A stretch of DNA of 22,134 nucleotides from IMG/VR virus record IMGVR_UViG_2529292905_000029. The stretch is one strand, 5' to 3'. The stretch comes from a virus (Duplodnaviria; Heunggongvirae; Uroviricota; Caudoviricetes). Made by a program: the position numbers and the translations under genes. This document shows, piece after piece, positions 1,754 to 22,134 of this stretch (positions within the stretch are counted from its first letter, which is position 1; every line of letters starts with the position of its first letter). The notes beneath the pieces are model-generated. The model saw only the letters and a list, made by a program, of their open reading frames with translations. It made no database searches and was not told the origin of the DNA.

Positions 1754-1755
1754 TT

Positions 1756-2423: not shown

Positions 2424-2486
2424 ATAATTAACCAGAGTTTTTAACGCACTTAATCGTGCGGGGCTTCTTTTTGCCTGGAGAAAGTC

Positions 2487-5784: not shown

Positions 5785-6236
5785 TGGCAAAAATTCACGA
5801 GGTAAAGCTGCACGCAAAATATTTCGACCTTGTGCTGGAAGGAAAGAAACGCGCAGAGTTTCGGAAAAATGACCGTAATTATGAGCGCGGGGACACGTTG
5901 ATTTTGCATGAATGGGCGCAGGGTGTGTATACGGGGAGAAAGGTTGAAGCCAGGATAACAGATGTTACTGACCTGTCAGACTGGCTGGAAGACTATGTCT
6001 TGCTAAGTATTGAGCTGCTTAATACAGGCGCATATGAGATTGTGAACTGGAAAGAACTTAGTGAGCGTGGCCTGGTATTCAGAATTAATCATGAAATTAT
6101 GCATCAGCTCGGCCTTGCTGTTATGTATGAACCAGAGACGGGGATGTCTGGCGGGGCAATGGTCGCCACGGATGGAGCATGGAACTATTCAGATGAACAG
6201 ATGGAGCGTGCACAGCAAAACGGGTGGCTTGGATAA
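5784..6236 (+). CDS. ASCH/DUF3850-like (PUA-fold) protein with C-terminal extension, 150 aa
   Basis: ATG at 5784 overlaps the TGA of A (ATGATG at 5781-5786). N-terminal ~90 aa (MAKIHEVKLHAKYFDLVLEGKKRAEFRKNDRNYERGDTLILHEW...) resembles the ASCH-like DUF3850 fold. P2 has a 91-aa ORF at this position, so the ~60-aa C-terminal extension is unusual. Confidence 0.6.
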   Translation: MAKIHEVKLHAKYFDLVLEGKKRAEFRKNDRNYERGDTLILHEWAQGVYTGRKVEARITDVTDLSDWLEDYVLLSIELLNTGAYEIVNWKELSERGLVFRINHEIMHQLGLAVMYEPETGMSGGAMVATDGAWNYSDEQMERAQQNGWLG

Positions 6237-6442
6237 TGCACAGAATACCAGGCGAGATACCGCACCATAAAACTAAAAATATCAAGCTGATGGCTATTGT
6301 TCAGCGTTTACAGCGGATTATGGTCAACGAAAATCTGACGCCCGATGAGCTGGTCGGGTGTGCCGAAATAGTCCGGGATAATTACGGGCGGCTTAACTAT
6401 ATCGGTCAGTCCAGAGTTGCGCCACCACCACGCAGACGATAG
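6224..6442 (+). CDS. Small hypothetical ORF, 51-72 aa (possible start at 6290)
   Basis: ORF track only. Convergent with the minus-strand cassette. No motif, weak support. Confidence 0.3.
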   Translation: MAWIMHRIPGEIPHHKTKNIKLMAIVQRLQRIMVNENLTPDELVGCAEIVRDNYGRLNYIGQSRVAPPPRRR

Positions 6443-6514
6443 AGAACGCCGCCAGTCGTGAAACTTGTTTTCAGGGCTGGCGGGGTTGAACAATGAGCGT
6501 AGCGAGGCGTTAGC

Positions 6515-6754
6515 CTATTTATTAAAAAATTCTAGAAGTGTAATTCCATTGGCTCCAAGGCTTACAAAGCCTTCAATACTATTAATTGATGTGATTGTCT
6601 TTTTCAGAATGTTCTTTAGCTTTGAGCCTTCTTCGGTCGTAGTTATTACTTCGTTAAATTGCTCAGACATACAAGCATGCCCCATTGTGGCTTCTGTTGC
6701 TGAAATTATTGGCTCAATACCAGTTATTTCATAGTCGTCAAAAGCTCTAATCAT
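6515..6754 (-). CDS. Hypothetical small acidic protein, 79 aa (second gene of accessory cassette)
   Basis: Minus-strand ORF in AT-rich DNA. Its ATG (6754-6752) overlaps the TGA (6753-6751) of the upstream 165-aa ORF. Rich in D/E. No recognisable domain. Confidence 0.5.
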   Translation of the reverse strand: MIRAFDDYEITGIEPIISATEATMGHACMSEQFNEVITTTEEGSKLKNILKKTITSINSIEGFVSLGANGITLLEFFNK

Positions 6755-7248
6755 GTTGTCAATGTAATATAATATTTCTTTTTTAGGTTAATTGGGAAGT
6801 CAGAATTAATTATGGATTCCTTCAGTTCTAATAATTGCCCCTTTATTTCAATTAACTGTTCATCTTTAAGTTTTCCAATCTGACCTTTGGTCTTGAATAG
6901 GACTGATATCATCCCTAATTCATTTATGGCATTATCAGAGATTCTTTGGAGGGAATGGGACAGAGATTCTCCCAGATTTAAGTTTTCGAAAAAATCATTA
7001 ACACTGGGCCTCCAGTGTGGGGCTGTGATTTCATCTTCTGGAAAGTAGTCTTTTAATGTGTTATCTATTTTTTTAGGCAAGCTCATGATTTTGGAAATCT
7101 TATCCCATAAGATGGTTTTATTATCTTCAGAACCCTCTAATTCAAACATTTGTAATAAAGCACGCTTTACCGTAATGTTATATGGTTGTTGTGCTTTTAG
7201 CTTGGTGAAAAACTCTCGTAAGGTCAGTGCTGAATTGTCGATGTACAT
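6751..7248 (-). CDS. Hypothetical protein, 165 aa (first gene of accessory cassette)
   Basis: Minus-strand ORF in the AT-rich block, with AGG about 9 nt upstream of the ATG at 7248 and a promoter-like sequence upstream. C-terminal region looks coiled-coil-like (KLKDEQLIEIKGQLLELKESI). No catalytic motif recognised. Confidence 0.55.
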   Translation of the reverse strand: MYIDNSALTLREFFTKLKAQQPYNITVKRALLQMFELEGSEDNKTILWDKISKIMSLPKKIDNTLKDYFPEDEITAPHWRPSVNDFFENLNLGESLSHSLQRISDNAINELGMISVLFKTKGQIGKLKDEQLIEIKGQLLELKESIINSDFPINLKKKYYITLTT

Positions 7249-7290
7249 GGAAAAACCTAACAGTCAAATTATTAATAATAGAACAACAAG

Positions 7291-7319
7291 ATACTAATAA
7301 AATCTAACGTTAGTATCAA
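7291..7319 (-). promoter_or_regulatory. Candidate sigma70 promoter for the accessory cassette (TTGATA-N17-TAGTAT on minus strand)
   Basis: Reverse complement of 7314-7319 is TTGATA and of 7291-7296 is TAGTAT, separated by 17 bp. The spacer contains the perfect palindrome CTAACGTTAG (7304-7313). About 40 nt upstream of the ATG at 7248. Confidence 0.45.
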
Positions 7320-7450
7320 TAACGAATATATGCGCACACTGCATGAAAATGCATTTTCTTTTAAGGGGGCGATATATCGAGTCGAGTCATGGTTGATGCG
7401 ACATTAGTGTGCTGGTGCAACTGCATTCAAACAGACCCATGAAGCGGGCG

Positions 7451-7469
7451 GGCGAGGCGGGGAAAGCAC
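7451..7469. other. cos site: 19-nt cohesive-end sequence GGCGAGGCGGGGAAAGCAC
   Basis: Exact 19-mer that I recall as the P2 cohesive end, found at the expected map position between the accessory slot and the 3' end of Q. A G/T-rich tract follows at about 7540-7610. Confidence 0.7.
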
Positions 7470-7610
7470 TGCGCGCTGGCGGTGGTGCTGATTTTATTTT
7501 TTCAGCGTCTCAGCGCGTCGTGACGGCGCTTAGTCTGCCCGTTGAGGCGTTGGTGTGTCTGCGGGGTGTTTTGTGCGGTGGTGAGCGTGTGAGGGGGTGA
7601 TGACGGGGTG

Positions 7611-7633
7611 TAAAAAAGCCGCCCGCAGGCGGC
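7611..7633 (-). terminator. Rho-independent terminator downstream of Q
   Basis: On the minus strand: GCCGCC-TGCG-GGCGGC stem-loop followed by TTTTTTA, starting about 5 nt after the Q stop codon. Confidence 0.6.
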
Positions 7634-7638
7634 GATGT

Positions 7639-8673
7639 TCAGTCGTTGTCAGTGTCCAGTGAGTAGTTTTTAAAGCGGATGACCTCCTGACCGAGCCAGC
7701 CGTTTATCTCGCGGATCCTGTCCTGTAACGGGATAAGCTCATTGCGGACAAAGACCTTTGCCACTTTCTCAATATCTCCCAGTGACCCGACGTTCTCCGG
7801 CTTGCCGCCCATCAACTGAAAGGGGATGCGGTGTGCGTCCAGCAGGTCAGCGGCGCTGGCTTTTTTGATATTAAAAAAATCGTCCTTCGTTGCCACTTCA
7901 CTGAGCGGGATAATTTTAATGCCGTCAGCTTTCCCCTGCGGGGCATAGAGAAACAGGTTTTTAAAGTTGTTGCGACCTTTCGACTTAACCATGTTTTCGC
8001 GGAGCATTTCGATATCGTTGCGATCCTGCACGGCATCGGTGACGTACATGATGTATCCGGCATGTGCGCCATTTTCGTAATACTTGCGGCGGAACAACGT
8101 GGCCGACTCATTCAGCCAGGCAGAGTTAAGGGCGCTGAGATATTCCGGCAGGCCGTACAGCTCCTGATTAATATCCGGCTCCAGCAGGTGAAACACGGAG
8201 CCGGGCGCGAAAGGTGTCGGCTCGTTGAAGGACGGCACCCACCAGTAAACATCCTCCTCCACGCCACGGCGGGTATATTTTGCCGGTGAGGTTTCCAGTC
8301 TGATGATCTTACCGGTGGTGCTGTAACGCTTTTCCAGAAACGCATTACCGAACACCAGAAAATCCAGCACAAAGCGGCTGAAATCCTGTTGTGAAAGCCA
8401 CGGATGCGGGATAAATGTCGAGGCCAGAATATTACGTTTGACGTAAATCGGTGAGCTGTGATGCACGGCAGCACGCAGACTTTTTGCCAGACCGGTAAAG
8501 CTGACCGGCGGCTCATACCATCTGCCGTTACTGATGCATTCGACGTAATCCAGAATGTCACGGCGGTCGAGTACCGGCACCGGCTCGCCAAAGGTGAATG
8601 CCTCCATTTTCGGGGCGCTGGCGGTCATTGTTTTTGCCGCAGGTTGCGGTGTTTTCCCTTTTTTCTTGCTCAT
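7639..8673 (-). CDS. Q: Portal protein (P2 gpQ), 344 aa
   Basis: Minus-strand ORF of 344 aa, the same length as P2 Q. Adjacent to and overlapping the terminase large-subunit gene; immediately inside cos, as in P2. Confidence 0.9.
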   Translation of the reverse strand: MSKKKGKTPQPAAKTMTASAPKMEAFTFGEPVPVLDRRDILDYVECISNGRWYEPPVSFTGLAKSLRAAVHHSSPIYVKRNILASTFIPHPWLSQQDFSRFVLDFLVFGNAFLEKRYSTTGKIIRLETSPAKYTRRGVEEDVYWWVPSFNEPTPFAPGSVFHLLEPDINQELYGLPEYLSALNSAWLNESATLFRRKYYENGAHAGYIMYVTDAVQDRNDIEMLRENMVKSKGRNNFKNLFLYAPQGKADGIKIIPLSEVATKDDFFNIKKASAADLLDAHRIPFQLMGGKPENVGSLGDIEKVAKVFVRNELIPLQDRIREINGWLGQEVIRFKNYSLDTDND

Positions 8674-10445
8674 CAGTAAAACTCCAGAATGGTGGATGTC
8701 AGCGGGGTGCTGATACCGGCGGTGAGTGGCTCATTTAACAGGGCGTGCATGGTCGCCCAGGCGAGGTCGGCGTGGCTGGCTTCCTCGCTGCGGCTGGCCT
8801 CATAGGTGGCGCTGCGTCCGCTGCTGGTCATGGTCTTGCGGATAGCCATAAACGAGCTGGTGATGTCGGTGGCGCTGACGTCATATTCCAGACAGCCACG
8901 ACGGATAACGTCTTTTGCCTTGAGCACCATTGCGGTTTTCATTTCCGGTGTGTAGCGGATATCGCGCGCGGCGGGATAGAACGAGCGCACGAGCTGGAAC
9001 ACGCCGACACCGAGGCCGGTGGCATCAATACCGATGTATTCGACGTTGTATTTTTCGGTGAGTTTGCGGATGGATTCAGCCTGAGTGGCAAAGTCCATGC
9101 CTTTCCACTGGTGACGCTCAAGTATCCTGAATTTGCCACCGGCCACCACCGGCGGTGCCAGCACCACGCATCCGGCGCTGTCGCCACGGTGTGACGGGTC
9201 GTAACCAATCCATACCGGGCGGGAGCCGAACGGATTGGCGGCAAAGGGTGCATAGTCTTCCCATTCTTCCAGCGTGTCGATCATGCAGCGTTGCAGCTCC
9301 TCGAACGGGAACACCGATGCCTTGTCGTCAACAAATTCACACATGAACAGGTTTTTAAAATCGTCGGCGCTGTTTTCGCGTTTGAGCTGCTCAATGTCGA
9401 ACAGCGTGCAGCCACCTTTCAGGGCGTCCTCAATGGTGACAATCTGCCGCCACTGGCCGTCTGCACAGAGAAGCCCATCGGCAAGGGCGTTATGACTGAC
9501 GTCGATTTCCACGCGTTCGGCGGCGCTGGCGCGTCCCCGGTTGAACAGTTCACCCGACCAGAACGGGTAGGCGTCGTGCGCCAGCGTGGACGGGGTGGAG
9601 AAATAGGTCGAGCGCAGGTGACTCTGTGAGGCCATACCTGATGCCACCTTACGCAGTACCTGAAAATTCGGTATCCAGAAAATCTCGTCGACGTACAGGT
9701 CGCCGTTATGGCTCTGCGCGGTGTTGGAGTTGGTGCCGAGAAAAATCAGTTTTGCGCCGTTATTGCCCAGGACAATCGGGTCACCGGTCAGGTCAACGTC
9801 AACCAGCCGGGCAAAGGCGATGATGTATTCGCGGAACACATACGCCTGCGTTTTACTGGCCGACAGAAAAATCTGGTTATGACCGGTTTTCAGGGCGCGC
9901 AGCAGCGCCTCGCGGGAAAAATAAAACGTCGCGCCAATCTGGCGGGATTTCAGGATATCGCGGATGCGGTGCTCAAGCCCGGCGCGATACCAGTGCAACT
10001 GATAGTCGAAAGACTGCTCAAAGAAAATCTGCTCCAGCTTTTCGATAGCCTCGTCACTGAAAAAATTCTTTTTCGGTTTGCGACGCCCGCCTTTGTTGCG
10101 GTTAGCGACGTTCGGATTAAGGTCTGCCTCGTTGCCGGTCTGGCTGTAACGGTTGACCCGTGCCAGCCGTTCAATCTGGCGTCCGAGCAGGTCAATTTCC
10201 TTGAAGTCACCGCCGGTTTTCTGCGGTTTGATGATGAGCTGGGTCAGCCGCGCTTCCAGACTCATTTCGACACGGCTGATGGGGGCAACGCTGTCCCAGC
10301 CGTCGCGCTGTTTCCAGCTCTGCACCGTCGGGCGTTTCATCTGCAACATGGCGGCAATCTGCGGCACGGAAAACCCCTGCCAGTACAGCAGCGCCGCCTG
10401 ACGACGCGGGTCGTGTAAAAGAGTGGTGTCTGTGGTGATGGTCAT
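8673..10445 (-). CDS. P: Terminase large (ATPase) subunit (P2 gpP), 590 aa
   Basis: Minus-strand ORF. Start taken at MTITTD (ATG 10445) with GAGG upstream, giving 590 aa as in P2 P. The ORF track's longer 600-aa version begins 30 nt upstream. Divergent from the O-N-M-L operon, as in P2. Confidence 0.9.
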   Translation of the reverse strand: MTITTDTTLLHDPRRQAALLYWQGFSVPQIAAMLQMKRPTVQSWKQRDGWDSVAPISRVEMSLEARLTQLIIKPQKTGGDFKEIDLLGRQIERLARVNRYSQTGNEADLNPNVANRNKGGRRKPKKNFFSDEAIEKLEQIFFEQSFDYQLHWYRAGLEHRIRDILKSRQIGATFYFSREALLRALKTGHNQIFLSASKTQAYVFREYIIAFARLVDVDLTGDPIVLGNNGAKLIFLGTNSNTAQSHNGDLYVDEIFWIPNFQVLRKVASGMASQSHLRSTYFSTPSTLAHDAYPFWSGELFNRGRASAAERVEIDVSHNALADGLLCADGQWRQIVTIEDALKGGCTLFDIEQLKRENSADDFKNLFMCEFVDDKASVFPFEELQRCMIDTLEEWEDYAPFAANPFGSRPVWIGYDPSHRGDSAGCVVLAPPVVAGGKFRILERHQWKGMDFATQAESIRKLTEKYNVEYIGIDATGLGVGVFQLVRSFYPAARDIRYTPEMKTAMVLKAKDVIRRGCLEYDVSATDITSSFMAIRKTMTSSGRSATYEASRSEEASHADLAWATMHALLNEPLTAGISTPLTSTILEFY

Positions 10446-10618
10446 GAATACCTCGCCGTGATGAATACACGGCAAGGCTACTGAGTCGCGCCCCGCGATT
10501 CGCTAAGGTGCTGTTGTGTCAGTGATAAGCCATCCGGGACTGATGGCGGAGGATGCGCATCGTCGGGAAACTGATGCCGACATGTGACTCCTCTAATCAC
10601 TATTCAGGACTCCTGACA
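10446..10618. promoter_or_regulatory. Divergent late-promoter region between P and O
   Basis: 173-bp intergenic region between divergently transcribed P and O. In P2 this interval holds the Ogr-dependent late promoters. Contains the inverted repeat GCCGTG-N7-CACGGC (10455-10473) and an imperfect TGT-N12-CAC element (10583-10600). Confidence 0.45.
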
Positions 10619-11473
10619 ATGGCAAAAAAAGTCTCAAAATTCTTTCGTATCGGCGTTGAGGGTGACACCTGTGACGGGCGTGTCATCAGTGCGCAGGATA
10701 TTCAGGAAATGGCCGAAACCTTTGACCCGCGAGTCTATGGTTGCCGCATTAACCTGGAACATCTGCGCGGCGTCCTGCCTGACGGTATTTTTAAGCGTTA
10801 TGGCGATGTGGTCGAACTGAAGGCCGAAAAGATTGACGATGATTCGGCGCTGAAAGGCAAATGGGCGCTGTTTGCGAAAATCACCCCGACCGATGACCTT
10901 ATCGCGATGAACAAGGCCGCGCAGAAGGTCTATACCTCAATGGAAATTCAGCCGAACTTTGCCAATACAGGCAAATGTTATCTGGTGGGTCTGGCCGTCA
11001 CCGATGACCCGGCAAGCCTCGGCACGGAATACCTGGAATTCTGCCGCACGGCAAAACACAACCCCCTGAACCGCTTCAAATTAAGCCCTGAAAACCTGAT
11101 TTCAGTGGCAACGCCCGTTGAGCTGGAATTTGAAGACCTGCCTGAAACCGTGTTCACCGCCCTGACCGAAAAGGTGAAGTCCATTTTTGGCCGCAAACAG
11201 GCCAGCGATGACGCCCGTCTGAATGACGTGCATGAAGCGGTGACCGCTGTTGCTGAACATGTGCAGGAAAAACTGAGCGCCACTGAGCAGCGCCTCGCTG
11301 AGATGGAAACCGCTTTTTCCGCACTTAAGCAGGAGGTGACTGACAGGGCGGATGAAACCAGCCAGGCATTCACCCGCCTGAAAAACAGTCTCGACCACAC
11401 CGAAAGTCTGACCCAGCAGCGCCGCAGCAAGGCCACCGGTGGTGGCGGTGACGCCCTGATGACGAACTGCTGA
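10619..11473 (+). CDS. O: Capsid scaffolding protein (P2 gpO), 284 aa
   Basis: Start taken at MAKKVSKF (ATG 10619), giving 284 aa as in P2 O. First gene of the head operon. Helical, Ala/Glu-rich C-terminal half typical of scaffold proteins. Confidence 0.88.
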   Translation: MAKKVSKFFRIGVEGDTCDGRVISAQDIQEMAETFDPRVYGCRINLEHLRGVLPDGIFKRYGDVVELKAEKIDDDSALKGKWALFAKITPTDDLIAMNKAAQKVYTSMEIQPNFANTGKCYLVGLAVTDDPASLGTEYLEFCRTAKHNPLNRFKLSPENLISVATPVELEFEDLPETVFTALTEKVKSIFGRKQASDDARLNDVHEAVTAVAEHVQEKLSATEQRLAEMETAFSALKQEVTDRADETSQAFTRLKNSLDHTESLTQQRRSKATGGGGDALMTNC

Positions 11474-11531
11474 CCGGCGTCAGTCAGTCCGGGAAAACCT
11501 TCACGATTAACCCTTAATTTCAGGAAAAACT

Positions 11532-12605
11532 ATGCGCCAGGAAACCCGCTTTAAATTTAATGCCTACCTGTCCCGTGTTGCCGAACTGAACGGCATCGAC
11601 GCCGGTGATGTGTCGAAAAAATTCACCGTTGAACCGTCGGTCACCCAGACCCTGATGAACACCATGCAGGAGTCCTCTGACTTTCTGACCCGCATCAACA
11701 TTGTGCCGGTCAGCGAAATGAAAGGGGAAAAAATTGGTATCGGTGTCACCGGCTCCATCGCCAGCACCACCGACACCGCCGGTGGCACCGAGCGTCAGCC
11801 GAAGGACTTCTCGAAGCTGGCGTCAAACAAGTACGAATGCGACCAGATTAACTTCGATTTTTATATCCGCTACAAAACGCTGGACCTGTGGGCGCGTTAT
11901 CAGGATTTCCAGCTCCGTGTCCGTAACGCCATTATCAAACGCCAGTCCCTTGATTTAATCATGGCCGGTTTTAACGGCGTGATGCGTGCCGAAACCTCTG
12001 ACCGCAGCAGCAATCCGATGCTGCAGGATGTGGCGGTCGGCTGGCTGCAGAAATACCGCAATGAAGCCCCGGCGCGCGTGATGAGCAAGGTTACTGACGA
12101 GGAAGGGCACACCACCTCTGAGGTTATCCGCGTGGGTAAGGGCGGTGATTATGCCAGCCTTGACGCACTGGTGATGGATGCGACCAACAACCTGATTGAG
12201 CCGTGGTATCAGGAAGACCCTGACCTTGTGGTGATTGTGGGACGTCAGCTACTGGCGGACAAGTATTTTCCCATCGTCAACAAGGAGCTGGACAACAGCG
12301 AAATGCTGGCCGCTGACGTCATCATCAGCCAGAAACGCATCGGTAACCTGCCGGCGGTACGCGTCCCGTACTTCCCGGCGGATGCGATGCTCATCACAAA
12401 GCTGGAAAACCTGTCCATCTACTACATGGATGACAGCCATCGCCGCGTGATTGAGGAAAACCCGAAACTCGACCGCGTGGAGAACTACGAGTCAATGAAC
12501 ATTGATTACGTGGTGGAAGACTACGCCGCCGGTTGTCTGGTGGAAAAAATTAAGGTCGGTGATTTCTCCACACTGGCTAAAGCGACCGCAGAGCCGGGAG
12601 CGTAA
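11532..12605 (+). CDS. N: Major capsid protein (P2 gpN), 357 aa
   Basis: 357 aa, the same length as P2 N. Position after the scaffold gene. Confidence 0.92.
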   Translation: MRQETRFKFNAYLSRVAELNGIDAGDVSKKFTVEPSVTQTLMNTMQESSDFLTRINIVPVSEMKGEKIGIGVTGSIASTTDTAGGTERQPKDFSKLASNKYECDQINFDFYIRYKTLDLWARYQDFQLRVRNAIIKRQSLDLIMAGFNGVMRAETSDRSSNPMLQDVAVGWLQKYRNEAPARVMSKVTDEEGHTTSEVIRVGKGGDYASLDALVMDATNNLIEPWYQEDPDLVVIVGRQLLADKYFPIVNKELDNSEMLAADVIISQKRIGNLPAVRVPYFPADAMLITKLENLSIYYMDDSHRRVIEENPKLDRVENYESMNIDYVVEDYAAGCLVEKIKVGDFSTLAKATAEPGA

Positions 12606-12608
12606 CCG

Positions 12609-13352
12609 ATGACGAGTCCCGCACAGCGCCACATGATGCGGGTCTCGGCAGCGATGACCGCGCAGCGGGAAGCCGCCCCGCTGCGACATGCAACTGTCTA
12701 TGAGCAGATGCTGGTTAAGCTCGCCGCAGACCAGCGCACACTGAAAGCGATTTATTCAAAAGAGCTGAAGGCCGCGAAAAAACGCGAACTGCTGCCGTTC
12801 TGGTTGCCGTGGGTGAACGGCGTGCTGGAGCAGGGCAAAGGTGCACAGGATGACATTCTGATGACGGTCATGCTGTGGCGTCTGGATACCGGCGATATTG
12901 CCGGTGCGCTGGAGATTGCCCGTTATGCCCTGAAGTACGGTCTGACCATGCCGGGTAAACACCGCCGCACCCCGCCGTACATGTTCACCGAGGAGGTGGC
13001 GCTCGCGGCCATGCGCGCCCACGCTGCCGGTGAGTCTGTGGATACCCGCCTGCTGACGGAGACCCTTGCACTGACCGCCACGGCAGACATGCCTGATGAA
13101 GTGCGCGCAAAGCTGCACAAAATCACCGGTCTGTTTCTGCGTGACGCTGGTGATGCCGCCGGTGCGCTGGCTCACCTGCAACGTGCGACACAGCTCGACT
13201 GTCAGGCAGGCGTCAAAAAAGAGATTGAACGACTGGAGCGGGAGCTGAAACCGAAGCCGGAGCCGCAGCCCAAAGCGGCCACCCGCGCCCCGCGTAAGAC
13301 CCGGAGCGTGACACCGGCAAAACGTGGACGCCCGAAAAAGAAAGCCAGTTAA
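12609..13352 (+). CDS. M: Terminase small / endonuclease subunit (P2 gpM), 247 aa
   Basis: 247 aa, the same length as P2 M. Basic C-terminal tail (KRGRPKKKAS). Position after N. Confidence 0.88.
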   Translation: MTSPAQRHMMRVSAAMTAQREAAPLRHATVYEQMLVKLAADQRTLKAIYSKELKAAKKRELLPFWLPWVNGVLEQGKGAQDDILMTVMLWRLDTGDIAGALEIARYALKYGLTMPGKHRRTPPYMFTEEVALAAMRAHAAGESVDTRLLTETLALTATADMPDEVRAKLHKITGLFLRDAGDAAGALAHLQRATQLDCQAGVKKEIERLERELKPKPEPQPKAATRAPRKTRSVTPAKRGRPKKKAS

Positions 13353-13451
13353 CAACCGAATGCGCCCCGCGCCAGGGCGGCACGCCGGTCAGTGAGGGTG
13401 AATCACCTGACACTGCACCGGCGTCCACCGCCCGACTTTTCAGAGGTAGTC

Positions 13452-13961
13452 ATGATGACGCTGATTATTCCGCGAAAGGAGGCTCCCGTGTCCGGTGAGG
13501 GTACGGTGGTCATCCCGCAACCGGCAGGCGACGAGCCGGTGATTAAAAACACGTTCTTTTTTCCCGATATCGACCCGAAGCGCGTCCGGGAACGTATGCG
13601 CCTTGAGCAGACCGTCGCCCCTGCCCGTCTGCGTGAGGCCATCAAGTCAGGCATGGCTGAAACGAATGCGGAGCTGTACGAGTACCGCGAACAGAAAATT
13701 GCCGCCGGTTTTACGCGTCTGGCTGACGTCCCGGCGGACGACATCGACGGTGAAAACATCAAAGTTTTTTACTACGAGCGCGCCGTGTGTGCGATGGCGA
13801 CCGCGTCGCTTTATGAGCGTTATCGCGGCGTGGATGCCAGTGCGAAAGGCGACAAGAAGGCCGACAGCATTGACAGCACCATTGATGAGCTGTGGCGGGA
13901 TATGCGCTGGGCGGTGGCGCGCATCCAGGACAAGCCACGCTGCATCGTGAGTCAAATCTGA
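13452..13961 (+). CDS. L: Head completion / stabilisation protein (P2 gpL), 169 aa
   Basis: Start taken at ATG 13452 (MMTLIIPRKE), giving 169 aa as in P2 L. Its stop overlaps the next start at 13959-13963. Confidence 0.85.
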   Translation: MMTLIIPRKEAPVSGEGTVVIPQPAGDEPVIKNTFFFPDIDPKRVRERMRLEQTVAPARLREAIKSGMAETNAELYEYREQKIAAGFTRLADVPADDIDGENIKVFYYERAVCAMATASLYERYRGVDASAKGDKKADSIDSTIDELWRDMRWAVARIQDKPRCIVSQI

Positions 13962-14164
13962 TGAAGACCTTTGCGCTACAGGGCGACACGCTCGACGCCA
14001 TTTGTGTCCGGTATTACGGGCGCACTGAGGGCGTGGTCGAGACTGTGCTCGCCGCAAATCCGGGACTGGCTGAACTGGGTGCGGTGCTGCCGCACGGCAC
14101 CGCCGTCGAACTGCCCGACGTTCAGACCGCGCCCGTGGCTGAAACTGTCAATCTGTGGGAGTAA
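13961..14164 (+). CDS. X: Tail protein X (P2 gpX), 67 aa
   Basis: ATG at 13961 overlapping the L stop. 67 aa, as in P2 X. Immediately precedes the holin gene. Confidence 0.8.
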   Translation: MKTFALQGDTLDAICVRYYGRTEGVVETVLAANPGLAELGAVLPHGTAVELPDVQTAPVAETVNLWE

Positions 14165-14167
14165 CGC

Positions 14168-14449
14168 ATGACAGCAGAAGAAAAAAGCGTCCTGTCGCTT
14201 TTCATGATTGGGGTGCTGATTGTTGTCGGCAAGGTGCTTGCCGGTGGTGAACCCATCACCCCGCGTCTGTTTATCGGGCGCATGTTGCTCGGTGGTTTTG
14301 TCTCGATGGTTGCCGGTGTTGTTCTGGTGCAGTTTCCTGACCTGTCACTGCCTGCGGTGTGCGGCATCGGCTCCATGCTGGGTATCGCCGGTTATCAGGT
14401 GATTGAGATTGCCATTCAGCGCCGCTTTAAGGGCAGGGGGAAACCGTAA
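14168..14449 (+). CDS. Y: Holin (P2 gpY), 93 aa
   Basis: 93 aa with hydrophobic transmembrane stretches (LFMIGVLIVVGKVLAGG, LLGGFVSMVAGVVLV) and a charged C-terminus. Immediately upstream of the endolysin gene. Confidence 0.85.
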   Translation: MTAEEKSVLSLFMIGVLIVVGKVLAGGEPITPRLFIGRMLLGGFVSMVAGVVLVQFPDLSLPAVCGIGSMLGIAGYQVIEIAIQRRFKGRGKP

Positions 14450-14946
14450 TGCCGGTAATTAACACGCATCAGAATATCGCGGCCTTTCTCGACATGCTGG
14501 CCGTGTCCGAAGGGACGGCGAATCATCCGCTGACGAAAAACCGGGGCTATGACGTGATAGTCACCGGACTGGACGGGAAGCCGGAAATTTTCACCGACTA
14601 CAGTGACCACCCGTTCGCGCATGGCCGACCGGCGAAGGTGTTTAACCGTCGCGGTGAAAAGTCCACGGCCTCCGGTCGCTATCAGCAACTTTACCTGTTC
14701 TGGCCGCATTACCGCAAACAGCTTGCCCTGCCGGATTTCAGTCCGTTGTCACAGGACAGACTTGCCATTCAGTTGATCCGCGAACGCGGTGCACTGGATG
14801 ACATCCGGGCGGGACGCATTGAGCGCGCCATTTCACGCTGTCGCAATATCTGGGCGTCCCTGCCGGGTGCCGGTTACGGTCAGCGTGAGCATTCACTGGA
14901 AAAACTGGTCACCGTCTGGCGTACCGCTGGCGGCGTACCGGCTTAA
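14449..14946 (+). CDS. K: Endolysin (P2 gpK, lysozyme-like), 165 aa
   Basis: 165 aa, as in P2 K. Start overlaps the holin stop (TAATG at 14447-14451). Sits in the lysis cassette between holin and lysA/lysB. Confidence 0.88.
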   Translation: MPVINTHQNIAAFLDMLAVSEGTANHPLTKNRGYDVIVTGLDGKPEIFTDYSDHPFAHGRPAKVFNRRGEKSTASGRYQQLYLFWPHYRKQLALPDFSPLSQDRLAIQLIRERGALDDIRAGRIERAISRCRNIWASLPGAGYGQREHSLEKLVTVWRTAGGVPA

Positions 14947-14960
14947 ACGGAGTAAACACC

Positions 14961-15386
14961 ATGAAGAAATTATCCCTTTCACTGATGCTGAACGTGTCGC
15001 TGGCGCTGATGCTGGCACTGTCCCTGATTTATCCGCAGAGCGTGGCCGTCAGTTTTGTCGCTGCCTGGGCGATTCTGGCGACGGTTATCTGTGTGGTTGC
15101 CGGTGGTGTCGGCGTGTATGCCACTGAGTATGTGCTGGAACGCTACGGGCGGGAGCTGCCGCCGGAATCGCTGGCCGTGAAGATTGTCACGGCGCTGTTT
15201 TTGCAGCCGGTGCCGTGGCGCAGACGGGCAGTAGCTCTGGTGGTGATGGTGGCGACATTTATCTCGCTGGTCGCTGCCGGGTGGATTTTTACCGCGCTGA
15301 TTTATCTCGTGGCATCGGTGTTCTTCCGGTTGGTACGTACGGCCTGCCGTCAGCGCTTTGAGGGGCGGGAACCATGTCAAAGCTGA
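14961..15386 (+). CDS. lysA: Lysis timing membrane protein LysA, 141 aa
   Basis: 141 aa, with several hydrophobic transmembrane segments. Position after K, as in P2. Confidence 0.8.
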   Translation: MKKLSLSLMLNVSLALMLALSLIYPQSVAVSFVAAWAILATVICVVAGGVGVYATEYVLERYGRELPPESLAVKIVTALFLQPVPWRRRAVALVVMVATFISLVAAGWIFTALIYLVASVFFRLVRTACRQRFEGREPCQS

Positions 15387-15799
15387 TGACTGTGCTGGTT
15401 GTGTTGTTATCGCTGGCGGTGGCCGGTCTGTTTCTGGTGAAACACAAAAATGCCAGCCTGCGCGCCTCGCTGGACAGGGCGAACAATGTCGCCAGCGGGC
15501 AGCAGGCGACCATCACCATGCTGAAAAATCAGCTTCATGTTGCGCTCACCAGGGCAGACAAAAACGAGCTGGCGCAGGTGGCACTGCGTCAGGAACTGGA
15601 GAACGCGGCGAAGCGTGAAGCACAGCGCGAGAAAACCATCACGAGGTTACTGAATGAAAACGAAGATTTTCGCCGCTGGTACGGTGCTGAGCTGCCTGAT
15701 GCTGTGCGCCGGTTGCACCAGCGCCCCGCCTGCACTGACGCCAGTGATTGTCCCCAACACCTGCCCGAAAGTGAGTCTTTGCCCGATGCCGGGCAGTGA
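15374..15799 (+). CDS. lysB: Rz-like inner-membrane spanin LysB, 141 aa
   Basis: 141 aa. N-terminal transmembrane segment (LMTVLVVLLSLAVAGLFLV) followed by a charged periplasmic helical region. Confidence 0.8.
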   Translation: MSKLMTVLVVLLSLAVAGLFLVKHKNASLRASLDRANNVASGQQATITMLKNQLHVALTRADKNELAQVALRQELENAAKREAQREKTITRLLNENEDFRRWYGAELPDAVRRLHQRPACTDASDCPQHLPESESLPDAGQ

Positions 15800-15944
15800 C
15801 CCGCAGACGAACGGCGATTTAAGTGCCGATATCCGGCAGCTTGAGAACGCGCTGGCACGCTGTGCCAGCCAGGTAAAAATGATTAAACACTGTCAGGACG
15901 AAAACGATGCTCAAACCCGACAGCCTGCGCAGGGCGCTGACTGA
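15654..15944 (+). CDS. lysC: Rz1-like outer-membrane lipoprotein spanin LysC, 96 aa, embedded out of frame in lysB and overlapping R
   Basis: Signal peptide with a lipobox-like LCAGC, Pro-rich mature region. Starts inside lysB in another frame and extends into R, the known P2 lysB/lysC arrangement. Confidence 0.7.
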   Translation: MKTKIFAAGTVLSCLMLCAGCTSAPPALTPVIVPNTCPKVSLCPMPGSDPQTNGDLSADIRQLENALARCASQVKMIKHCQDENDAQTRQPAQGAD

Positions 15945-16374
15945 TGCCGTCACGGTGCTGAAAACCAGTCCAGAGATGCTGCGGATATTCGTGGATAACG
16001 GGAGTATTGCCTCCACGCTGGCGACGTCGCTGTCGTTCGAAAAGCGTTACACGCTCAATGTCATTGTGACCGACTTTACCGGTGATTTTGACCTGCTCAT
16101 CGTGCCGGTGCTGGCGTGGCTGCGGGAAAATCAGCCCGACATCATGACCACCGACGAAGGTCAGAAAAAGGGCTTCACGTTTTATGCAGACATCAACAAT
16201 GACAGCAGCTTTGATATCAGCATCAGCCTGATGCTGACCGAGCGCACGCTGGTCAGTGAGGTGGACGGCGCACTGCATGTGAAGAATATCCCGGAACCTC
16301 CGCCGCCGGAGCCGGTCACCCGCCCGGTGGAGCTTTATATCAATGGCGAACTGGTGAGCAAGTGGGATGAATGA
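15907..16374 (+). CDS. R: Tail completion protein R (P2 gpR), 155 aa
   Basis: 155 aa, as in P2 R. Position after the lysis genes. Confidence 0.85.
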   Translation: MLKPDSLRRALTDAVTVLKTSPEMLRIFVDNGSIASTLATSLSFEKRYTLNVIVTDFTGDFDLLIVPVLAWLRENQPDIMTTDEGQKKGFTFYADINNDSSFDISISLMLTERTLVSEVDGALHVKNIPEPPPPEPVTRPVELYINGELVSKWDE

Positions 16375-16819
16375 GTTTAAGCGTTTTGAAGACCGGCTGA
16401 CCGGACTTATTGAATCGCTGTCACCGTCAGGGCGTCGGCGACTGAGCGCCGAACTGGCGAAACGTCTGCGGCAGAGTCAGCAGCGCCGGGTGATGGCACA
16501 GAAAGCCCCGGACGGCACACCCTACGCACCACGCCAGCAGCAGAGCGCCAGAAAAAAGACCGGTCGCGTTAAGCGAAAAATGTTTGCGAAACTTATCACC
16601 AGTCGCTTTTTGCATATCCGCGCCAGTCCGGAACAGGCATCAATGGAGTTTTACGGCGGGAAGTCACCGAAAATCGCCAGTGTGCATCAGTTCGGTCTGT
16701 CGGAAGAAACCCGGAAAGACGGTAAGAAAATTGATTATCCGGCGCGTCCTCTGCTCGGCTTTACCGGTGAGGATGTGCAGATGATTGAAGAGATTATTCT
16801 GGCTCACCTCGACCGTTAG
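16367..16819 (+). CDS. S: Tail completion protein S (P2 gpS), 150 aa
   Basis: 150 aa, as in P2 S. Start overlaps the end of R. Confidence 0.85.
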   Translation: MNEFKRFEDRLTGLIESLSPSGRRRLSAELAKRLRQSQQRRVMAQKAPDGTPYAPRQQQSARKKTGRVKRKMFAKLITSRFLHIRASPEQASMEFYGGKSPKIASVHQFGLSEETRKDGKKIDYPARPLLGFTGEDVQMIEEIILAHLDR

Positions 16820-16885
16820 TTGTGCCATTCCTGACACCTCATCGTCACATTGCCGCCGGTATGACCCGGCGGCATCCTTCCCGTT

Positions 16886-17521
16886 ATGAACACTCTCGCA
16901 AATATTCAGGAACTCGCGCGCGCACTGCGCAACATGATTCGCACCGGCCTTGTCGTCGAAACCGACCTTAACGCCGGTCGCTGCCGTGTGCAGACCGGCG
17001 GCATGTGCACTGACTGGCTTCAGTGGCTGACCCATCGCGCCGGACGTTCGCGCACATGGTGGGCACCTTCCGTGGGGGAACAGGTGCTGATTCTGGCCGT
17101 GGGGGGTGAACTCGACACGGCGTTCGTTCTGCCGGGGATTTATTCCGGCGATAACCCCTCGCCGTCTGTGTCGGCGGATGCCCTGTACATCCGTTTCCCT
17201 GACGGGGCGGTGATTGAGTATGAACCCGAAACCAGTGCGCTCACGGCAAGCGGAATTAAAACGGCCAGCGTGACGGCTTCTGATTCTGTTACTGCCACGG
17301 TGCCGGTGGTCATGGTGAAAGCGTCAACCCGCATCACTCTGGACACGCCGGAGGTGGTCTGCACCAACAGGCTGATTACCGGCACGCTGGAAGTGCAGAA
17401 GGGCGGGACGATGCGCGGCAACATTGAACACACCGGCGGTGAACTCTCATCAAACGGTAAGGTACTGCATACCCATAAACACCCCGGCGACAGCGGCGGC
17501 ACAACCGGGAGTCCTTTATGA
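16886..17521 (+). CDS. V: Baseplate spike / hub protein (P2 gpV), 211 aa
   Basis: 211 aa, as in P2 V. First gene of the V-W-J-I-H baseplate/fibre operon. Confidence 0.9.
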   Translation: MNTLANIQELARALRNMIRTGLVVETDLNAGRCRVQTGGMCTDWLQWLTHRAGRSRTWWAPSVGEQVLILAVGGELDTAFVLPGIYSGDNPSPSVSADALYIRFPDGAVIEYEPETSALTASGIKTASVTASDSVTATVPVVMVKASTRITLDTPEVVCTNRLITGTLEVQKGGTMRGNIEHTGGELSSNGKVLHTHKHPGDSGGTTGSPL

Positions 17522-17793
17522 CAGCGCGTTATCTCGGAATGAATCGCAGTGATGGCCTGACTGTCACTGACCTTGAGCATATCAGCCAGAGTATCGGCGA
17601 TATCCTGCGCACACCGGTCGGCTCACGGGTGATGCGTCGTGATTACGGCTCGTTGCTGGCGTCAATGATTGACCAGCCGCAGACCCCGGCGCTTGAGTTG
17701 CAGATTAAGGTCGCCTGTTACATGGCGGTGCTGAAATGGGAACCCCGCGTCACCCTGTCATCCGTCACCACGGCGCGCAGTTTTGACGGGCGA
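17518..17793 (+). pseudogene. W: Baseplate wedge protein W (P2 gpW), 5' fragment of 92 codons, interrupted by IS
   Basis: ATG at 17518 overlaps the V stop. The reading frame runs into the IS end sequence after codon 92 (...SFDGR). The ORF-track 124-aa product is read-through into the IS. Confidence 0.8.
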
Positions 17794-17797
17794 ATAA
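17794..17797. repeat. Target-site duplication (left copy), ATA(A)
   Basis: ATAA directly abuts the IS left end and is repeated at 19410-19413 at the right end. Confidence 0.7.
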
Positions 17798-19409
17798 GGG
17801 GGTGCGGACGATTTCTTGGACGGTTTATACGGACATCAATCCGACCGCATGACGATACTCGATGGGACTACGCCCGCCAAGCGACACTTTGATGCGGCGC
17901 TCGTTGTACCAGTGGATATAGGCATCGATTCGCGTCATGAGGTCTTTCAGCGTCACGTGCTGCCAATTCCTCGGGTAGATTAGTTCGGTCTTCAATCGTC
18001 CGAAAAAGCCCTCGCATGCAGCATTGTCTGGCGAGCAGCCCTTTTTGGACATCGACCGCGTTAATTGGGCATTTTCAGTGCGGCGGATCCACGCAGGCCA
18101 GCGATAATGCGAGCCCCTGTCCGAATGGATAACCGGATGCTCACCGGGTCGCAGTGTCCGTACCGCGTGATCCAGCATGGTATTGACCAGGTTCGCATCC
18201 GGGCTGGTGCCGATATTCCAGGCCACCACCAGCCCATCGAAGCAATCGACGATCGGCGAGACGTAGACCTTCCCTGCCGGAATGTGTATTTCCGTCAGAT
18301 CGGTCAACCATTTCGTATTCGGCGCCGACGCGTGAAAGTCGCGATTCAGCAGATTCGGGACCGCTGGTGTCGGGTCGCCAGCATACGCCGAGAAGCGCCG
18401 GCGGCGCGGTGTTCTCACGACCAGACGCTCTTGCGCCATCAAGCGACGCACGACCTTCTCGGACACACGCATGCCACCAAGGCGCAAGGCACTATCAATG
18501 CGTCGATAGCCATAGCAGCGGTAGTTGTCCTCGAAGATAGTCCGAATGACCTCACGCACCTGCGTGTACTTGTCGGGCCGCGTCTGCCGCAGGCGTTGAT
18601 AGAAGTATGTGCTGCGCGCCAGCTTCAGGCCGCACAACAGATTGGCTAATGGAAACGTGACTCTGAGGGCATCAACCACCTTCGTTTTTTCTCGGCTTGT
18701 CAGTTCGAGGGGGTTGATGCCCATGTCTTTTTTTATCAATTCACTCGCCTTCTCCAGAATTGCATTCTCCATGCGAAGCCGCTGGTTCTGGCTCTCCAGT
18801 TCGGCCAGTTCCCTGAGTAGTGCCTCATGCCGCTGCTCGAGCGAGGTGTCACCTTTCTTCTTTGTCATGGGTTTTAGGGGCACTTTGCCAAGTAATCGAT
18901 GCTGCCAGTTATACAACGTTGGTCGCGATACACCGACAGTGTCGGCCACATCCTTTGCCGAACCTACGCGCAGGTTCAGTGCAATGACGGCTTGCTGCTT
19001 CTCGAGGCGAGAGCGGGCGACTGTGGGAGCGCTGCTGCCGACGACCGTCCTAGCGAATTCAGGGCGTAAATCACGGATCCAGGCACGCAAGGCCTCGCGG
19101 CTTGGGTAGCCCAGGCTTCGGATTGTGTGACTCAGGCAGTAGCCTTGTTCGATATAGTGATCTACTGCCCGTTGCTTTTGCTCATCGGTGTACTGCCGTT
19201 TTATCCGTTGATAGCCTCGGCGAAGATCCTGATTCCGTTCGAATTCTGCCAACCAGGCCTTCAGCGAGTTCTTGGTGGGGTATCCCAGCTGCCGTAGTGT
19301 GGCGCTCATCCGGCGCCCAAGCTTCAGGTACAACCTCACGGCTCGAAGGCGATCTTCATACGAATACATGAACTACTCCTAAAGTAGTCCAAGATTTTGT
19401 CCGCACCCC
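17798..19409 (-). mobile_element. Insertion sequence (~1.61 kb), IS3-family-like, inserted in gene W
   Basis: Imperfect terminal inverted repeats: left GGGGGTGCGGACGATTTCTTGGAC, right (reverse complement) GGGGTGCGGACAAAATCTTGGAC. Flanked by an ATA(A) direct repeat. Carries one long transposase ORF. Removing it restores a 115-codon W reading frame. Confidence 0.85.
17825..19369 (-). CDS. Transposase, IS3-family-like DDE (rve) type, single fused 514-aa ORF
   Basis: N-terminal HTH region resembling IS150-type InsA (MYSYEDRLRAVRLYL...), leucine-zipper-like segment (LLRELAELESQNQRLRMENAILEKA), and C-terminal rve-type catalytic motifs (HSDRGSHY; SPDNAACEGFFGRLKTE). AGGAG lies 7 nt upstream of the ATG. 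Confidence 0.85.
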   Translation of the reverse strand: MYSYEDRLRAVRLYLKLGRRMSATLRQLGYPTKNSLKAWLAEFERNQDLRRGYQRIKRQYTDEQKQRAVDHYIEQGYCLSHTIRSLGYPSREALRAWIRDLRPEFARTVVGSSAPTVARSRLEKQQAVIALNLRVGSAKDVADTVGVSRPTLYNWQHRLLGKVPLKPMTKKKGDTSLEQRHEALLRELAELESQNQRLRMENAILEKASELIKKDMGINPLELTSREKTKVVDALRVTFPLANLLCGLKLARSTYFYQRLRQTRPDKYTQVREVIRTIFEDNYRCYGYRRIDSALRLGGMRVSEKVVRRLMAQERLVVRTPRRRRFSAYAGDPTPAVPNLLNRDFHASAPNTKWLTDLTEIHIPAGKVYVSPIVDCFDGLVVAWNIGTSPDANLVNTMLDHAVRTLRPGEHPVIHSDRGSHYRWPAWIRRTENAQLTRSMSKKGCSPDNAACEGFFGRLKTELIYPRNWQHVTLKDLMTRIDAYIHWYNERRIKVSLGGRSPIEYRHAVGLMSV

Positions 19410-19413
19410 ATAA
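19410..19413. repeat. Target-site duplication (right copy), ATA(A)
   Basis: Direct repeat of 17794-17797, immediately after the IS right end. Confidence 0.7.
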
Positions 19414-19481
19414 CGGTCACGTTAACCGGTCAGCACAACGACACCGGCCAGCCACTTTCGTTAACCATCCCTGTGAGTTGA
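19410..19481 (+). pseudogene. W: Baseplate wedge protein W, 3' fragment (23 codons), downstream of IS
   Basis: In-frame continuation (I)TVTLTGQHNDTGQPLSLTIPVS ending at TGA 19479-19481, five bases before the J start. 92 + 23 = 115 codons, the length of P2 W. Confidence 0.75.
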
Positions 19482-19485
19482 AACC

Positions 19486-20394
19486 ATGCCGATTATCGAC
19501 CTGAACCAGCTACCCGCACCGGATGTGGTCGAGGAGCTGGACTTTGAAACCATTCTTGCCGAACGCAAGGCGACACTGATTTCCCTTTACCCGGAAGACC
19601 AGCAGGAGGCGGTCGCCCGTACCCTGATGCTGGAATCTGAGCCTCTCGTCAAACTGCTGGAGGAAAATGCTTATCGTGAGCTTATCTGGCGTCAGCGTGT
19701 GAATGAGGCCGCACGGGCGGTAATGCTGGCCTGTGCCGCCGGTAATGACCTTGATGTGATTGGTGCCAATTACAACACCACGCGCCTGATTATCACCCCG
19801 GCAGATGATTCGACTATCCCGCCGACACCGGCAGTGATGGAATCTGACACCGATTATCGTCTGCGTATTCAGCAGGCGTTTGAAGGTTTAAGCGTCGCCG
19901 GGTCAGTGGGAGCCTATCAGTATCATGGTCGCAGTGCCGACGGGCGTGTCGCGGATATCTCTGTCACCAGTCCGTCTCCGGCCTGTGTCACTATCTCTGT
20001 GCTGTCTCGCGAAAATAACGGTATCGCATCCGAAGACCTGCTGGCGGTGGTGCGCAACGCCCTTAATGGTGAGGACGTCAGGCCGGTGGCCGACCGCGTG
20101 ACCGTGCAGTCTGCCGCCATCGTTGAATACCAGATAAACGCCACGCTTTACCTTTACCCTGGTCCTGAAAGCGAACCCATCCGCGCTGCTGCCGTGAAAA
20201 AACTGGAAGCGTACATCACGGCACAGCACCGGCTGGGGCGCGACATCCGTCTGTCTGCCATTTATGCCGCTTTGCATGTGGAAGGCGTGCAGCGTGTCGA
20301 GCTGGCCGCACCACTGGCCGACATTGTGCTCAACAGTACGCAGGCGTCTTTCTGCACCGAATACAGCGTCGTGACCGGAGGCTCGGATGAGTGA
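19486..20394 (+). CDS. J: Baseplate assembly protein J (P2 gpJ), 302 aa
   Basis: 302 aa, as in P2 J. Position after W. Confidence 0.9.
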   Translation: MPIIDLNQLPAPDVVEELDFETILAERKATLISLYPEDQQEAVARTLMLESEPLVKLLEENAYRELIWRQRVNEAARAVMLACAAGNDLDVIGANYNTTRLIITPADDSTIPPTPAVMESDTDYRLRIQQAFEGLSVAGSVGAYQYHGRSADGRVADISVTSPSPACVTISVLSRENNGIASEDLLAVVRNALNGEDVRPVADRVTVQSAAIVEYQINATLYLYPGPESEPIRAAAVKKLEAYITAQHRLGRDIRLSAIYAALHVEGVQRVELAAPLADIVLNSTQASFCTEYSVVTGGSDE

Positions 20395-20998
20395 TTCGCG
20401 CCTGCTGCCGACCGGCTCATCACCGCTTGAAGTTGCCGCCGCAAAAGCCTGTGCGGAAATTGAAAAAACGCCGGTCAGTATTCGTGAGCTGTGGAACCCG
20501 GACACCTGCCCGGCAAATCTGCTGCCGTGGCTGGCGTGGTCATTTTCGGTTGACCGCTGGGATGATAAGTGGCCGGAAGCGACAAAACGCGCTGTTATCC
20601 GCGATGCGTATTTCATTCACTGCCATAAGGGCACTATAGGCGCAATCCGGCGTGTGGTGGAGCCGCTCGGCTATCTGATTGAGGTGAGGGAGTGGTGGCA
20701 ACTCAATGAGGAGCCGGGGACGTTCCGTATCGTTGTTGGCGTGCTTGAGCAGGGTATTACCGAGGAAATGTATCAGGAGCTGGAGCGCCTCGTTGCTGAT
20801 GCAAAACCGGCAAGCCGCCATCTGACGGGACTGGCTATCAGTTTAAGCACAACCGGCAACATTTTTGCCGGTGCGGGATGCTATCACGGCGACGCCCTGA
20901 CGGTTTATCCCTACACCCCGGAGGCCATTATTGTCGGAGGGGATTATTTCCCGGCCTCGGCCATTCATTTAATTGATAACCTGAGAGTAAACGCATGA
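20387..20998 (+). CDS. I: Baseplate / tail protein I (P2 gpI), 203 aa
   Basis: ATG 20387 preceded by GGAGG and overlapping the J 3' end. Stop overlaps the H start. Position between J and H. The ORF is longer than the 176 aa I recall for P2 I. Confidence 0.8.
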   Translation: MSDSRLLPTGSSPLEVAAAKACAEIEKTPVSIRELWNPDTCPANLLPWLAWSFSVDRWDDKWPEATKRAVIRDAYFIHCHKGTIGAIRRVVEPLGYLIEVREWWQLNEEPGTFRIVVGVLEQGITEEMYQELERLVADAKPASRHLTGLAISLSTTGNIFAGAGCYHGDALTVYPYTPEAIIVGGDYFPASAIHLIDNLRVNA

Positions 20999-22134
20999 CA
21001 GTGAAATACTACGCCATTCTGACTAATCAGGGCGCGGCACGGCTGGCTAACGCGACGATGCTCGGCAGTAAGCTGAATCTGACGCAAATGGCCGTTGGTG
21101 ATGCGAATGGTGTCTTGCCGACACCAGACCCGGCACAGACAAAACTGATTAACCAGAAACGCATCGCGCCGCTGAATCTTCTGAGTGTTGACCCGAACAA
21201 CCAGAGCCAGATTATTGCGGAGCAAATCATCCCTGAGAACGAGGGCGGATTCTGGATCCGTGAGATTGGGCTTTATGATGATGAAGGCGTACTCATTGCG
21301 GTGGCGAACTGCCCGGAAACGTACAAACCGCAGTTGCAGGAAGGCAGTGGTCGTACCCAGACTATCCGCATGATTCTGGTTGTCACGAATACCGAAGCTA
21401 TTACGCTGAAAATCGACCCGTCGGTGGTACTGGCGACCCGTAAATACGTGGATGATGAAGTCCTGGAATTAAGGCTGTATGTGGATGACCAGATGAGAAA
21501 CCACATTGCCGCACAGGATCCTCATACCCAGTATGCACAGAAACATAATCCGACATTTACCGGAGAACCAAAAGCGCCGACGCCTGCCGCAGGAAATAAC
21601 ACCACGCGGATTGCGACCACTGAGTTTGTTCAGGCCGCTATTACCGCTCTGATTAACGGTGCGCCAGCCACGCTGGACACACTGAAAGAAATTGCCGCAG
21701 CCATTAACAATGACCCGAAATTCAGTACCACCATTAACAATGCGCTGTCAGGTAAGCAGCCACTGGATGAGACGCTGACTCATTTGAGTGGAAAGGATGT
21801 AGCTGGTCTTCTCACATACCTTGGTTTGGGAGAAGCGGCGAAAAGGGATGTGGGTACAGGAGAAAATCAGATACCGGATATGTCAGCCTGGAAAAGAAAT
21901 CCGAGTTCTAATCGCTGGAGAAAATTGCCTGATGGAACCATCATTCAAATGGGAATATCAGCATCAGGGCCATTAGGCTCACCTGTAAATATCACCCTGC
22001 CGATATCTTTCAGCAATACCAATTATTGTGTTGTTGCATCGTACGATAATGCACGGTCAGGTGTGTCAACAATGGTTAGTTTTGCAGCGTTACCTGTTTC
22101 ACCATCGCAATTTTCCCTGATGTCATCTGTGACT
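20995..22134 (+). CDS. H: Tail fibre protein H (P2 gpH-like), N-terminal 380 codons; truncated by window end
   Basis: Open frame from ATG 20995 to the window end with no stop, so it is absent from the ORF track. N-terminus (MTVKYYAILTNQGAARLA...MAVGDANGVLP...) has the conserved P2-family fibre N-terminal pattern. Position after I. Confidence 0.85.
   Translation, partial: MTVKYYAILTNQGAARLANATMLGSKLNLTQMAVGDANGVLPTPDPAQTKLINQKRIAPLNLLSVDPNNQSQIIAEQIIPENEGGFWIREIGLYDDEGVLIAVANCPETYKPQLQEGSGRTQTIRMILVVTNTEAITLKIDPSVVLATRKYVDDEVLELRLYVDDQMRNHIAAQDPHTQYAQKHNPTFTGEPKAPTPAAGNNTTRIATTEFVQAAITALINGAPATLDTLKEIAAAINNDPKFSTTINNALSGKQPLDETLTHLSGKDVAGLLTYLGLGEAAKRDVGTGENQIPDMSAWKRNPSSNRWRKLPDGTIIQMGISASGPLGSPVNITLPISFSNTNYCVVASYDNARSGVSTMVSFAALPVSPSQFSLMSSVT

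Follow-up and report, generated by a model that had tools for sequence, protein, structure and literature searches.

In a P2-like prophage of Escherichia coli, the reading frame for the baseplate protein gpW breaks off and resumes about 1.6 kb downstream. What separates the two parts of the gene, and can a prophage in this state still build a tail? We analyzed the locus within a stretch of 22,134 nucleotides (the window). Positions 1-17248 are 100% identical to contig AIFU01000023.1 (GCA_000249575.2) of E. coli DEC5E, and by coordinates the window is the final 22,134 bp of this contig, such that its right end, within gene H, is the contig end. We consider it highly probable that IS1353 inserted into codon 94 of W, that W was lost, that expression of J, I, H and G was probably lowered, and that tails consequently fail.

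IS1353 in the baseplate gene W

The inserted DNA is a copy of IS1353 on the minus strand, located at positions 17798-19410. It is 1613 bp long and identical at 1613 of 1613 positions to the R100 copy. An alignment of 17798-19409 with positions 7399-9010 of R100 (NC_002134) contains the same base at all 1612 positions, the match reaches base 1613 at 19410, and the flanks of the two copies diverge directly outside the common 1613 bp. On the plus strand, the ends of the element read GGGGGTGCGGAC...GTCCGCACCCCA. The name IS1353 is taken from the UniRef title of the identical protein, 'transposase for insertion sequence element IS1353'. With the copy in In2/Tn21 (R100/NR1), the prophage element shares the 1613-bp sequence, the 514-amino-acid protein WP_000287615.1, the termini and a 3-bp duplication of the target. 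However, the R100 copy lies in the Tn21 integron, where NC_002134 positions 7399-9010 fall within IS1326 between tniB and istA and the target is ACT, whereas the prophage copy is chromosomal, resides in a prophage gene and has the target TAA.

A repeat search reveals terminal inverted repeats of 23 nt. The copy farther from the transposase start (17799-17821) is 87% complementary to the nearer one (19387-19409), and the pair, at the extreme ends of IS1353, fits the pattern of imperfect inverted repeats of about 20-40 bp. Compared with IS3-family termini of the form 5′-TG...CA-3′, the element, read in the orientation of the transposase, starts with TGGGGTGCGGAC, in which TG is present, and ends with ...GTCCGCACCCCC, in which CA is absent. 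Relatives have the termini GGGGG...CCCCC.

The transposase is encoded at 17825-19369 on the minus strand as a single open reading frame of 514 amino acids, annotated by PGAP as the IS3 family transposase WP_000287615.1. It matches the DDE family profile NF033516 (transpos_IS3) of NCBIfam with 408 bits (E 4e-122, cutoff 160), and its residues 124-506 span the complete profile (3-369). Pfam domains HTH_Tnp_1, HTH_21, rve and rve_2 are also detected. These findings bear out the original prediction that an IS3-family element with an intact transposase gene splits gpW, as the frame is uninterrupted over its 514 codons and the element is identical to R100 IS1353. The programmed -1 frameshift between two overlapping reading frames that characterizes the IS3 family is absent, and PGAP gives a single coding sequence in all copies inspected. 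A frameshift-free transposase gene is a trait of IS1353 itself and is not peculiar to the prophage copy. The N-terminal ∼120 residues of the protein form an extra region with two more helix-turn-helix modules, which is atypical for the IS3 family.

The element is flanked by TAA on the left (17795-17797) and TAA on the right (19411-19413), and the same IS ends give ACT/ACT in R100. Uninterrupted W alleles have ATAA once only, and IS1326 without IS1353 has ACT once. A perfect 3-bp repeat flanks 11 of the 17 complete elements with these termini, and a 4-bp repeat flanks none of them. Both TAA/TAA in the prophage and ACT/ACT in R100 agree with the duplications of 3-4 bp made by IS3-family elements. 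A short direct repeat on the two sides of the element had been predicted and is present, but its sequence, previously read as ATA(A), is TAA, with a length of 3 bp. The terminal A of IS1353 matches the target by chance, which accounts for the appearance of ATAA. A 1612-bp element with a 4-bp ATAA duplication was rejected as an alternative, since R100 would then show CACT and AACT, whereas 1613 bp gives perfect 3-bp repeats at both sites. The limits of the element are corrected to 17798-19410. As a second independent insertion site, the prophage locus fixes the exact 1613-bp extent of IS1353 and the 3-bp length of the duplication.

The 5′ part of W (17518-17797, plus strand) comprises codons 1-93 and the first base of codon 94, and in tblastn it matches residues 1-93 of P2 W with 98.9% identity at 17518-17796. 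At present this frame continues into the element to yield a fusion of 124 amino acids (17518-17892), with 93 codons from W and 31 from the IS. The 3′ remnant (19414-19481, plus strand) supplies the remainder of codon 94, codons 95-115 and the stop codon (19479-19481), and has no start codon of its own. Residues 93-115 of P2 W match with 95.7% identity at 19410-19478, and the stop codon of the remnant ends 4 bases ahead of the ATG of J (19486). Removal of 17798-19413, which is the IS plus one TAA, rebuilds a gpW of 115 amino acids, exactly the P2-sized gene that had been expected from joining the two parts.

The rebuilt protein scores 53.5 bits (E 2e-14) against Pfam GPW_gp25 (PF04965) over residues 18-104, with a gathering cutoff of 27.2, and matches PHROG 43, 'baseplate wedge subunit', with an E value of 3.5e-52. 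Among solved structures, its best match is the R-pyocin sheath initiator PA0617 (6u5b; E 3e-19). The position of the gene also fits, as W lies between the spike gene V and the baseplate gene J in the tblastn-derived order S, V, W, J, I, H. Thus rebuilt, the gene resembles P2 W, a member of the T4 gp25 / pyocin PA0617 family, in its 115 codons, its 96-99% identity, its V-W-J-I-H neighborhood and its 4-nt spacing to J. In contrast to P2 W, the DEC5E gene has 1616 additional bases following codon 93, and consists of the 124-codon fusion and a start-less remnant of 22 codons. W in this prophage should be labeled a pseudogene, and the 514-codon frame should be labeled IS1353 and not phage cargo.

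Uninterrupted versions of the locus are abundant. When the V-W-J DNA with the insertion excised (1185 nt) is used as a query, 1534 of 5426 complete E. coli genomes yield one ungapped alignment with 95-99% identity. The same DNA aligns to 78 phage records, including P2, L-413C and pro483 with 97-98% identity. All ten loci that carry an identical J have an intact W of 115 amino acids directly upstream, and the alignment of these loci with the window stops at 17797 and restarts at 19410, the two aligned blocks sharing four bases (ATAA) of the intact allele.

Searches for the same event elsewhere were negative. No W/IS1353 junction was found in the 5426 complete E. coli genomes, a set to which the closed DEC5E genome does not belong, and a 26-mer across the left junction has no match in viral and metagenome contigs. 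The 124-amino-acid W′-IS fusion is not on record, and IS1353 has no match among phage records. Likewise, no interruption at the W site was found in intact prophage or phage records. A single draft assembly, that of DEC5E, contains the insertion, which is therefore an infrequent move of IS1353 to a new position, specific to this strain.

The remainder of the prophage and the timing of the insertion

The prophage adjoins cpxP-cpxR-cpxA and is P2-like (Peduovirus), with 31 P2 proteins mapping by tblastn in the order of P2, mostly with 92-100% identity. Divergent proteins are int (52%), C (43%), cox (43%), I (82%) and H (about 42%), with int, C and cox representing a different immunity type. The genes int, C, cox, orf78, B, orf80-83, A, Q, P, O, N, M, L, X, Y, K, lysA, lysB, lysC, R, S and V are full length. 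These statements on intactness apply to the window; the right third of the prophage, with G, FI-D, ogr and attR, is beyond the contig end. A tblastn search of the window with all P2 proteins gives no match for orf30, tin and old. Between S and V (16819-16886) there is no orf30, and the different immunity and integration module occupies 1-1753.

The genes on either side of W are intact. The baseplate spike gpV (16886-17521, plus strand), encoded upstream of W in the same operon, aligns over 211 of 211 amino acids with 97.2% identity to P2 V and carries the Pfam domains Phage_base_V and Phage_spike. Directly upstream of the V start is a GC-rich hairpin (16853-16874). Downstream of IS1353, the coding sequence for the baseplate protein gpJ (19486-20394, plus strand; Pfam Baseplate_J) is intact over 302 of 302 amino acids, with 98.3% identity to P2 J. 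It is followed by that for gpI (20387-20998, plus strand; Pfam Tail_P2_I), which is likewise intact and has the same 203-amino-acid form in related prophages.

At the site of P2 tin/old is a cargo gene (6515-7248, minus strand) with 34% GC. Its relatives have 244 amino acids and belong to PHROG 15904 (function unknown). In the window the gene is split into frames of 165 and 79 amino acids by the loss of one base in an A-run near 6775-6785, which has six A residues where the relatives imply seven. The frame at 6751-7248 corresponds to protein ECDEC5E_4863, which is rare. The expectation that the cargo was intact thus fails, as the 244-codon gene is frameshifted. The frameshift could be a real pseudogene mutation or a homopolymer sequencing error.

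Could the prophage have been defective before IS1353 arrived, so that its insertion merely reflects the decay of a gene that was already neutral? The frameshifted cargo gene is in keeping with such a history, and an earlier lesion could lie in the right third of the prophage, beyond the window. However, the cargo gene is non-essential and its lost base could be a sequencing error, while the 30 other P2 homologs in the window are full length, contain no stop codons and are 92-100% identical to P2 outside the immunity and tail-fiber regions (I 82%, H about 42%). The complete identity of the element to the R100 copy and its perfect target duplication also indicate a recent event. We therefore regard a prior defect as unlikely, and favor the insertion in W as the cause of the defect. 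The same identity (1613/1613) and perfect duplication suggest that the insertion itself is recent, in line with the earlier claim of a relatively recent event, which indeed looks to be so.

Loss of a prophage gene to an IS is an ordinary, known kind of prophage decay. In the E. coli O157:H7/O55:H7 lineage, IS-disrupted defective prophages are known, an example being the insertion of IS629 in lambdoid prophages. As in those cases, an IS3-family element appears to inactivate a morphogenetic gene in an otherwise well preserved prophage of the same lineage. The DEC5E case differs in that the element is IS1353, a passenger of a resistance transposon, instead of IS629, which is resident in the lineage, and in that the target is P2-like and not lambdoid. 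IS3-family insertions have also been described in genes of other O55:H7 strains (PMC9413875). The identity of the element, IS1353 at a new site, is the only unusual aspect, and a mildly unusual one. Beyond annotation, in which the P2-like prophage of DEC5E is to be labeled defective, the finding matters little; for the evolution of the O55:H7/O157:H7 lineage it adds one further case of IS-driven prophage decay.

At the right end of the window, positions 21821-21882 within H (20995-22134) match related prophages in inverted orientation. These relatives have alternative fiber tips, tail-fiber assembly genes and a resolvase/invertase, and thus an invertible tail-fiber segment, which probably caused the assembly to break at the window end. 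In one relative (GCA_049544835.1; CP186699.1), a sopE-type effector gene (SopE_GEF) is located in the tail-fiber region at 12789-13511, and J is identical to that in the window. The prophage of this genome shows that the same baseplate module is shared with SopE-phi-like phages.

Predicted consequences for tail assembly and downstream genes

According to a cryo-EM preprint on P2, gpW lies at the wedge core and serves as the sheath initiator; its strands Val78-Ala86 and Arg92-His101 pair with two sheath subunits to build a four-stranded 'handshake' sheet (bioRxiv 10.64898/2026.09.14.750843). Strand 92-101 joins gpW to the first sheath ring. The residue numbering given there for P2 gpW fits the rebuilt protein exactly. 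In the prophage, the frame exits W after Ile93, and an uninterrupted frame through the handshake strand 92-101 is therefore lacking. The break is inside this second strand, such that most of the strand and the C-terminus are replaced by 31 unrelated residues. The record annotation lists W as an essential tail gene in P2, and W amber mutations are lethal to this phage. Because the break falls in handshake strand 92-101, a defect in tail assembly is predicted from the sequence to be very likely. The prophage would be left with the 124-residue W′-IS fusion alone, minus residues 94-115 and, with them, most of strand 92-101.

The insertion might also affect the genes beyond it. IS insertions are strongly polar. 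Between the stop codon of the fusion and J lie 1594 nt of RNA that is not translated and is antisense to the transposase. A scan of 16700-19600 detected no sigma-70-like promoter, and thus none in IS1353 facing J. On the sense strand within IS1353, no strong intrinsic terminator was found, there being a weak 5-bp hairpin only, which is no more than expected by chance. For this reason, polarity on J-I-H-G would rest on presumed termination by Rho, which is plausible. An insert of 1.6 kb whose sense strand is not translated probably lowers the expression of J, I, H and G, and its location upstream of these genes strengthens the prediction of a tail defect.

We also considered whether the insertion might be harmless, with a functional W′-IS fusion, expression of J, I, H and G by read-through, and a viable prophage. 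Residues 1-93 do include the helices of the core (20-74) as well as the first of the handshake strands (78-86), and the lack of a strong intrinsic terminator on the IS sense strand would permit some read-through. Nonetheless, the GPW_gp25 domain, which reaches residue 104, and the alignment with PA0617, which reaches residue 101, both pass beyond the break, strand 92-101 belongs to the four-stranded sheath handshake, and the last 23 residues show 96% conservation relative to P2. The absence of any interruption at the W site in intact prophage or phage records, the lethality of W amber mutations and the strong polarity of IS insertions also count against a harmless event, which we hold to be somewhat less probable even than a prior defect.

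If, as we favor, the insertion inactivates W, the likely phenotype of the prophage is one in which immunity, excision, replication, head formation and lysis are kept, and functional tails and infectious particles are lost, as far as can be predicted from its gene content. Further defects might lie beyond the window, and a second P2-like prophage in the strain might complement the loss of W. In this state, the prophage likely could not supply tails to a P4-type satellite. P2 is not SOS-inducible, and mitomycin C is hence a poor induction test for such a prophage.

Probable donor, habitual site and relatives of IS1353

IS1353 is abundant: in the assembly collection, 8579 blocks list the identical transposase. 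Its position hardly varies, however, as almost every copy occupies the same site within IS1326. The canonical junction is present in 62 of 62 E. coli records, in 223 of 227 plasmids and in all 10 of the contexts sampled. DEC5E, an O55:H7 strain, has two plasmids, each with aadA1-qacEdelta1-sul1 and a mercury operon (PMC9413875). This combination is the usual Tn21/In2 setting of IS1353, so that a resident plasmid copy is the likely source of the element, and we infer that the donor was probably the Tn21-like region on one of these plasmids. From there, IS1353 would have transposed into codon 94 of W. Elements of the IS3 family transpose by a copy-out/paste-in route that leaves the donor in place and duplicates 3 bp of target, and the event in DEC5E would accordingly have generated the TAA duplication while the donor copy stayed behind.

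Misplacement of a plasmid copy of IS1353 into the prophage contig, with W truly intact, might be suspected from a draft assembly of a strain with Tn21-like regions reported on two plasmids (PMC9413875), but is very unlikely given the target duplication and the exact reconstitution of W, as both junctions are exact at the IS tips, TAA is present on both sides where a misjoin makes no duplication, removal of the IS and one TAA restores the frame exactly, and the contig crosses the whole IS with unique sequence on either side.

Accepting the insertion as genuine, we lean toward the view that IS1353 may still be active in Enterobacteria and not be a frozen passenger of In2/Tn21, in which case the prophage would record a rare, possibly the first, documented move to a site outside IS1326, from a resistance plasmid into the chromosome, with the disabling of a prophage as its result. 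The locus is small evidence that IS1353 can still leave Tn21. If this view is correct, active IS1353 would tie the carriage of a resistance transposon to prophage inactivation.

The terminal 20-mer of IS1353, CAAGATTTTGTCCGCACCCC (19390-19409), is found without mismatch in at least 120 loci of very different bacteria, among them Burkholderiales, Gammaproteobacteria and many metagenome-assembled genomes of Firmicutes and Synergistota. The elements that carry it measure about 1457-1460 bp or 1610 bp and have GGGGG...CCCCC ends. Of the full-length relatives of IS1353, those most similar to it come from Castellaniella sp. S9 (84%, multicopy) and Pusillimonas noertemannii (75%), and these similarities suggest that IS1353 may be of betaproteobacterial origin.
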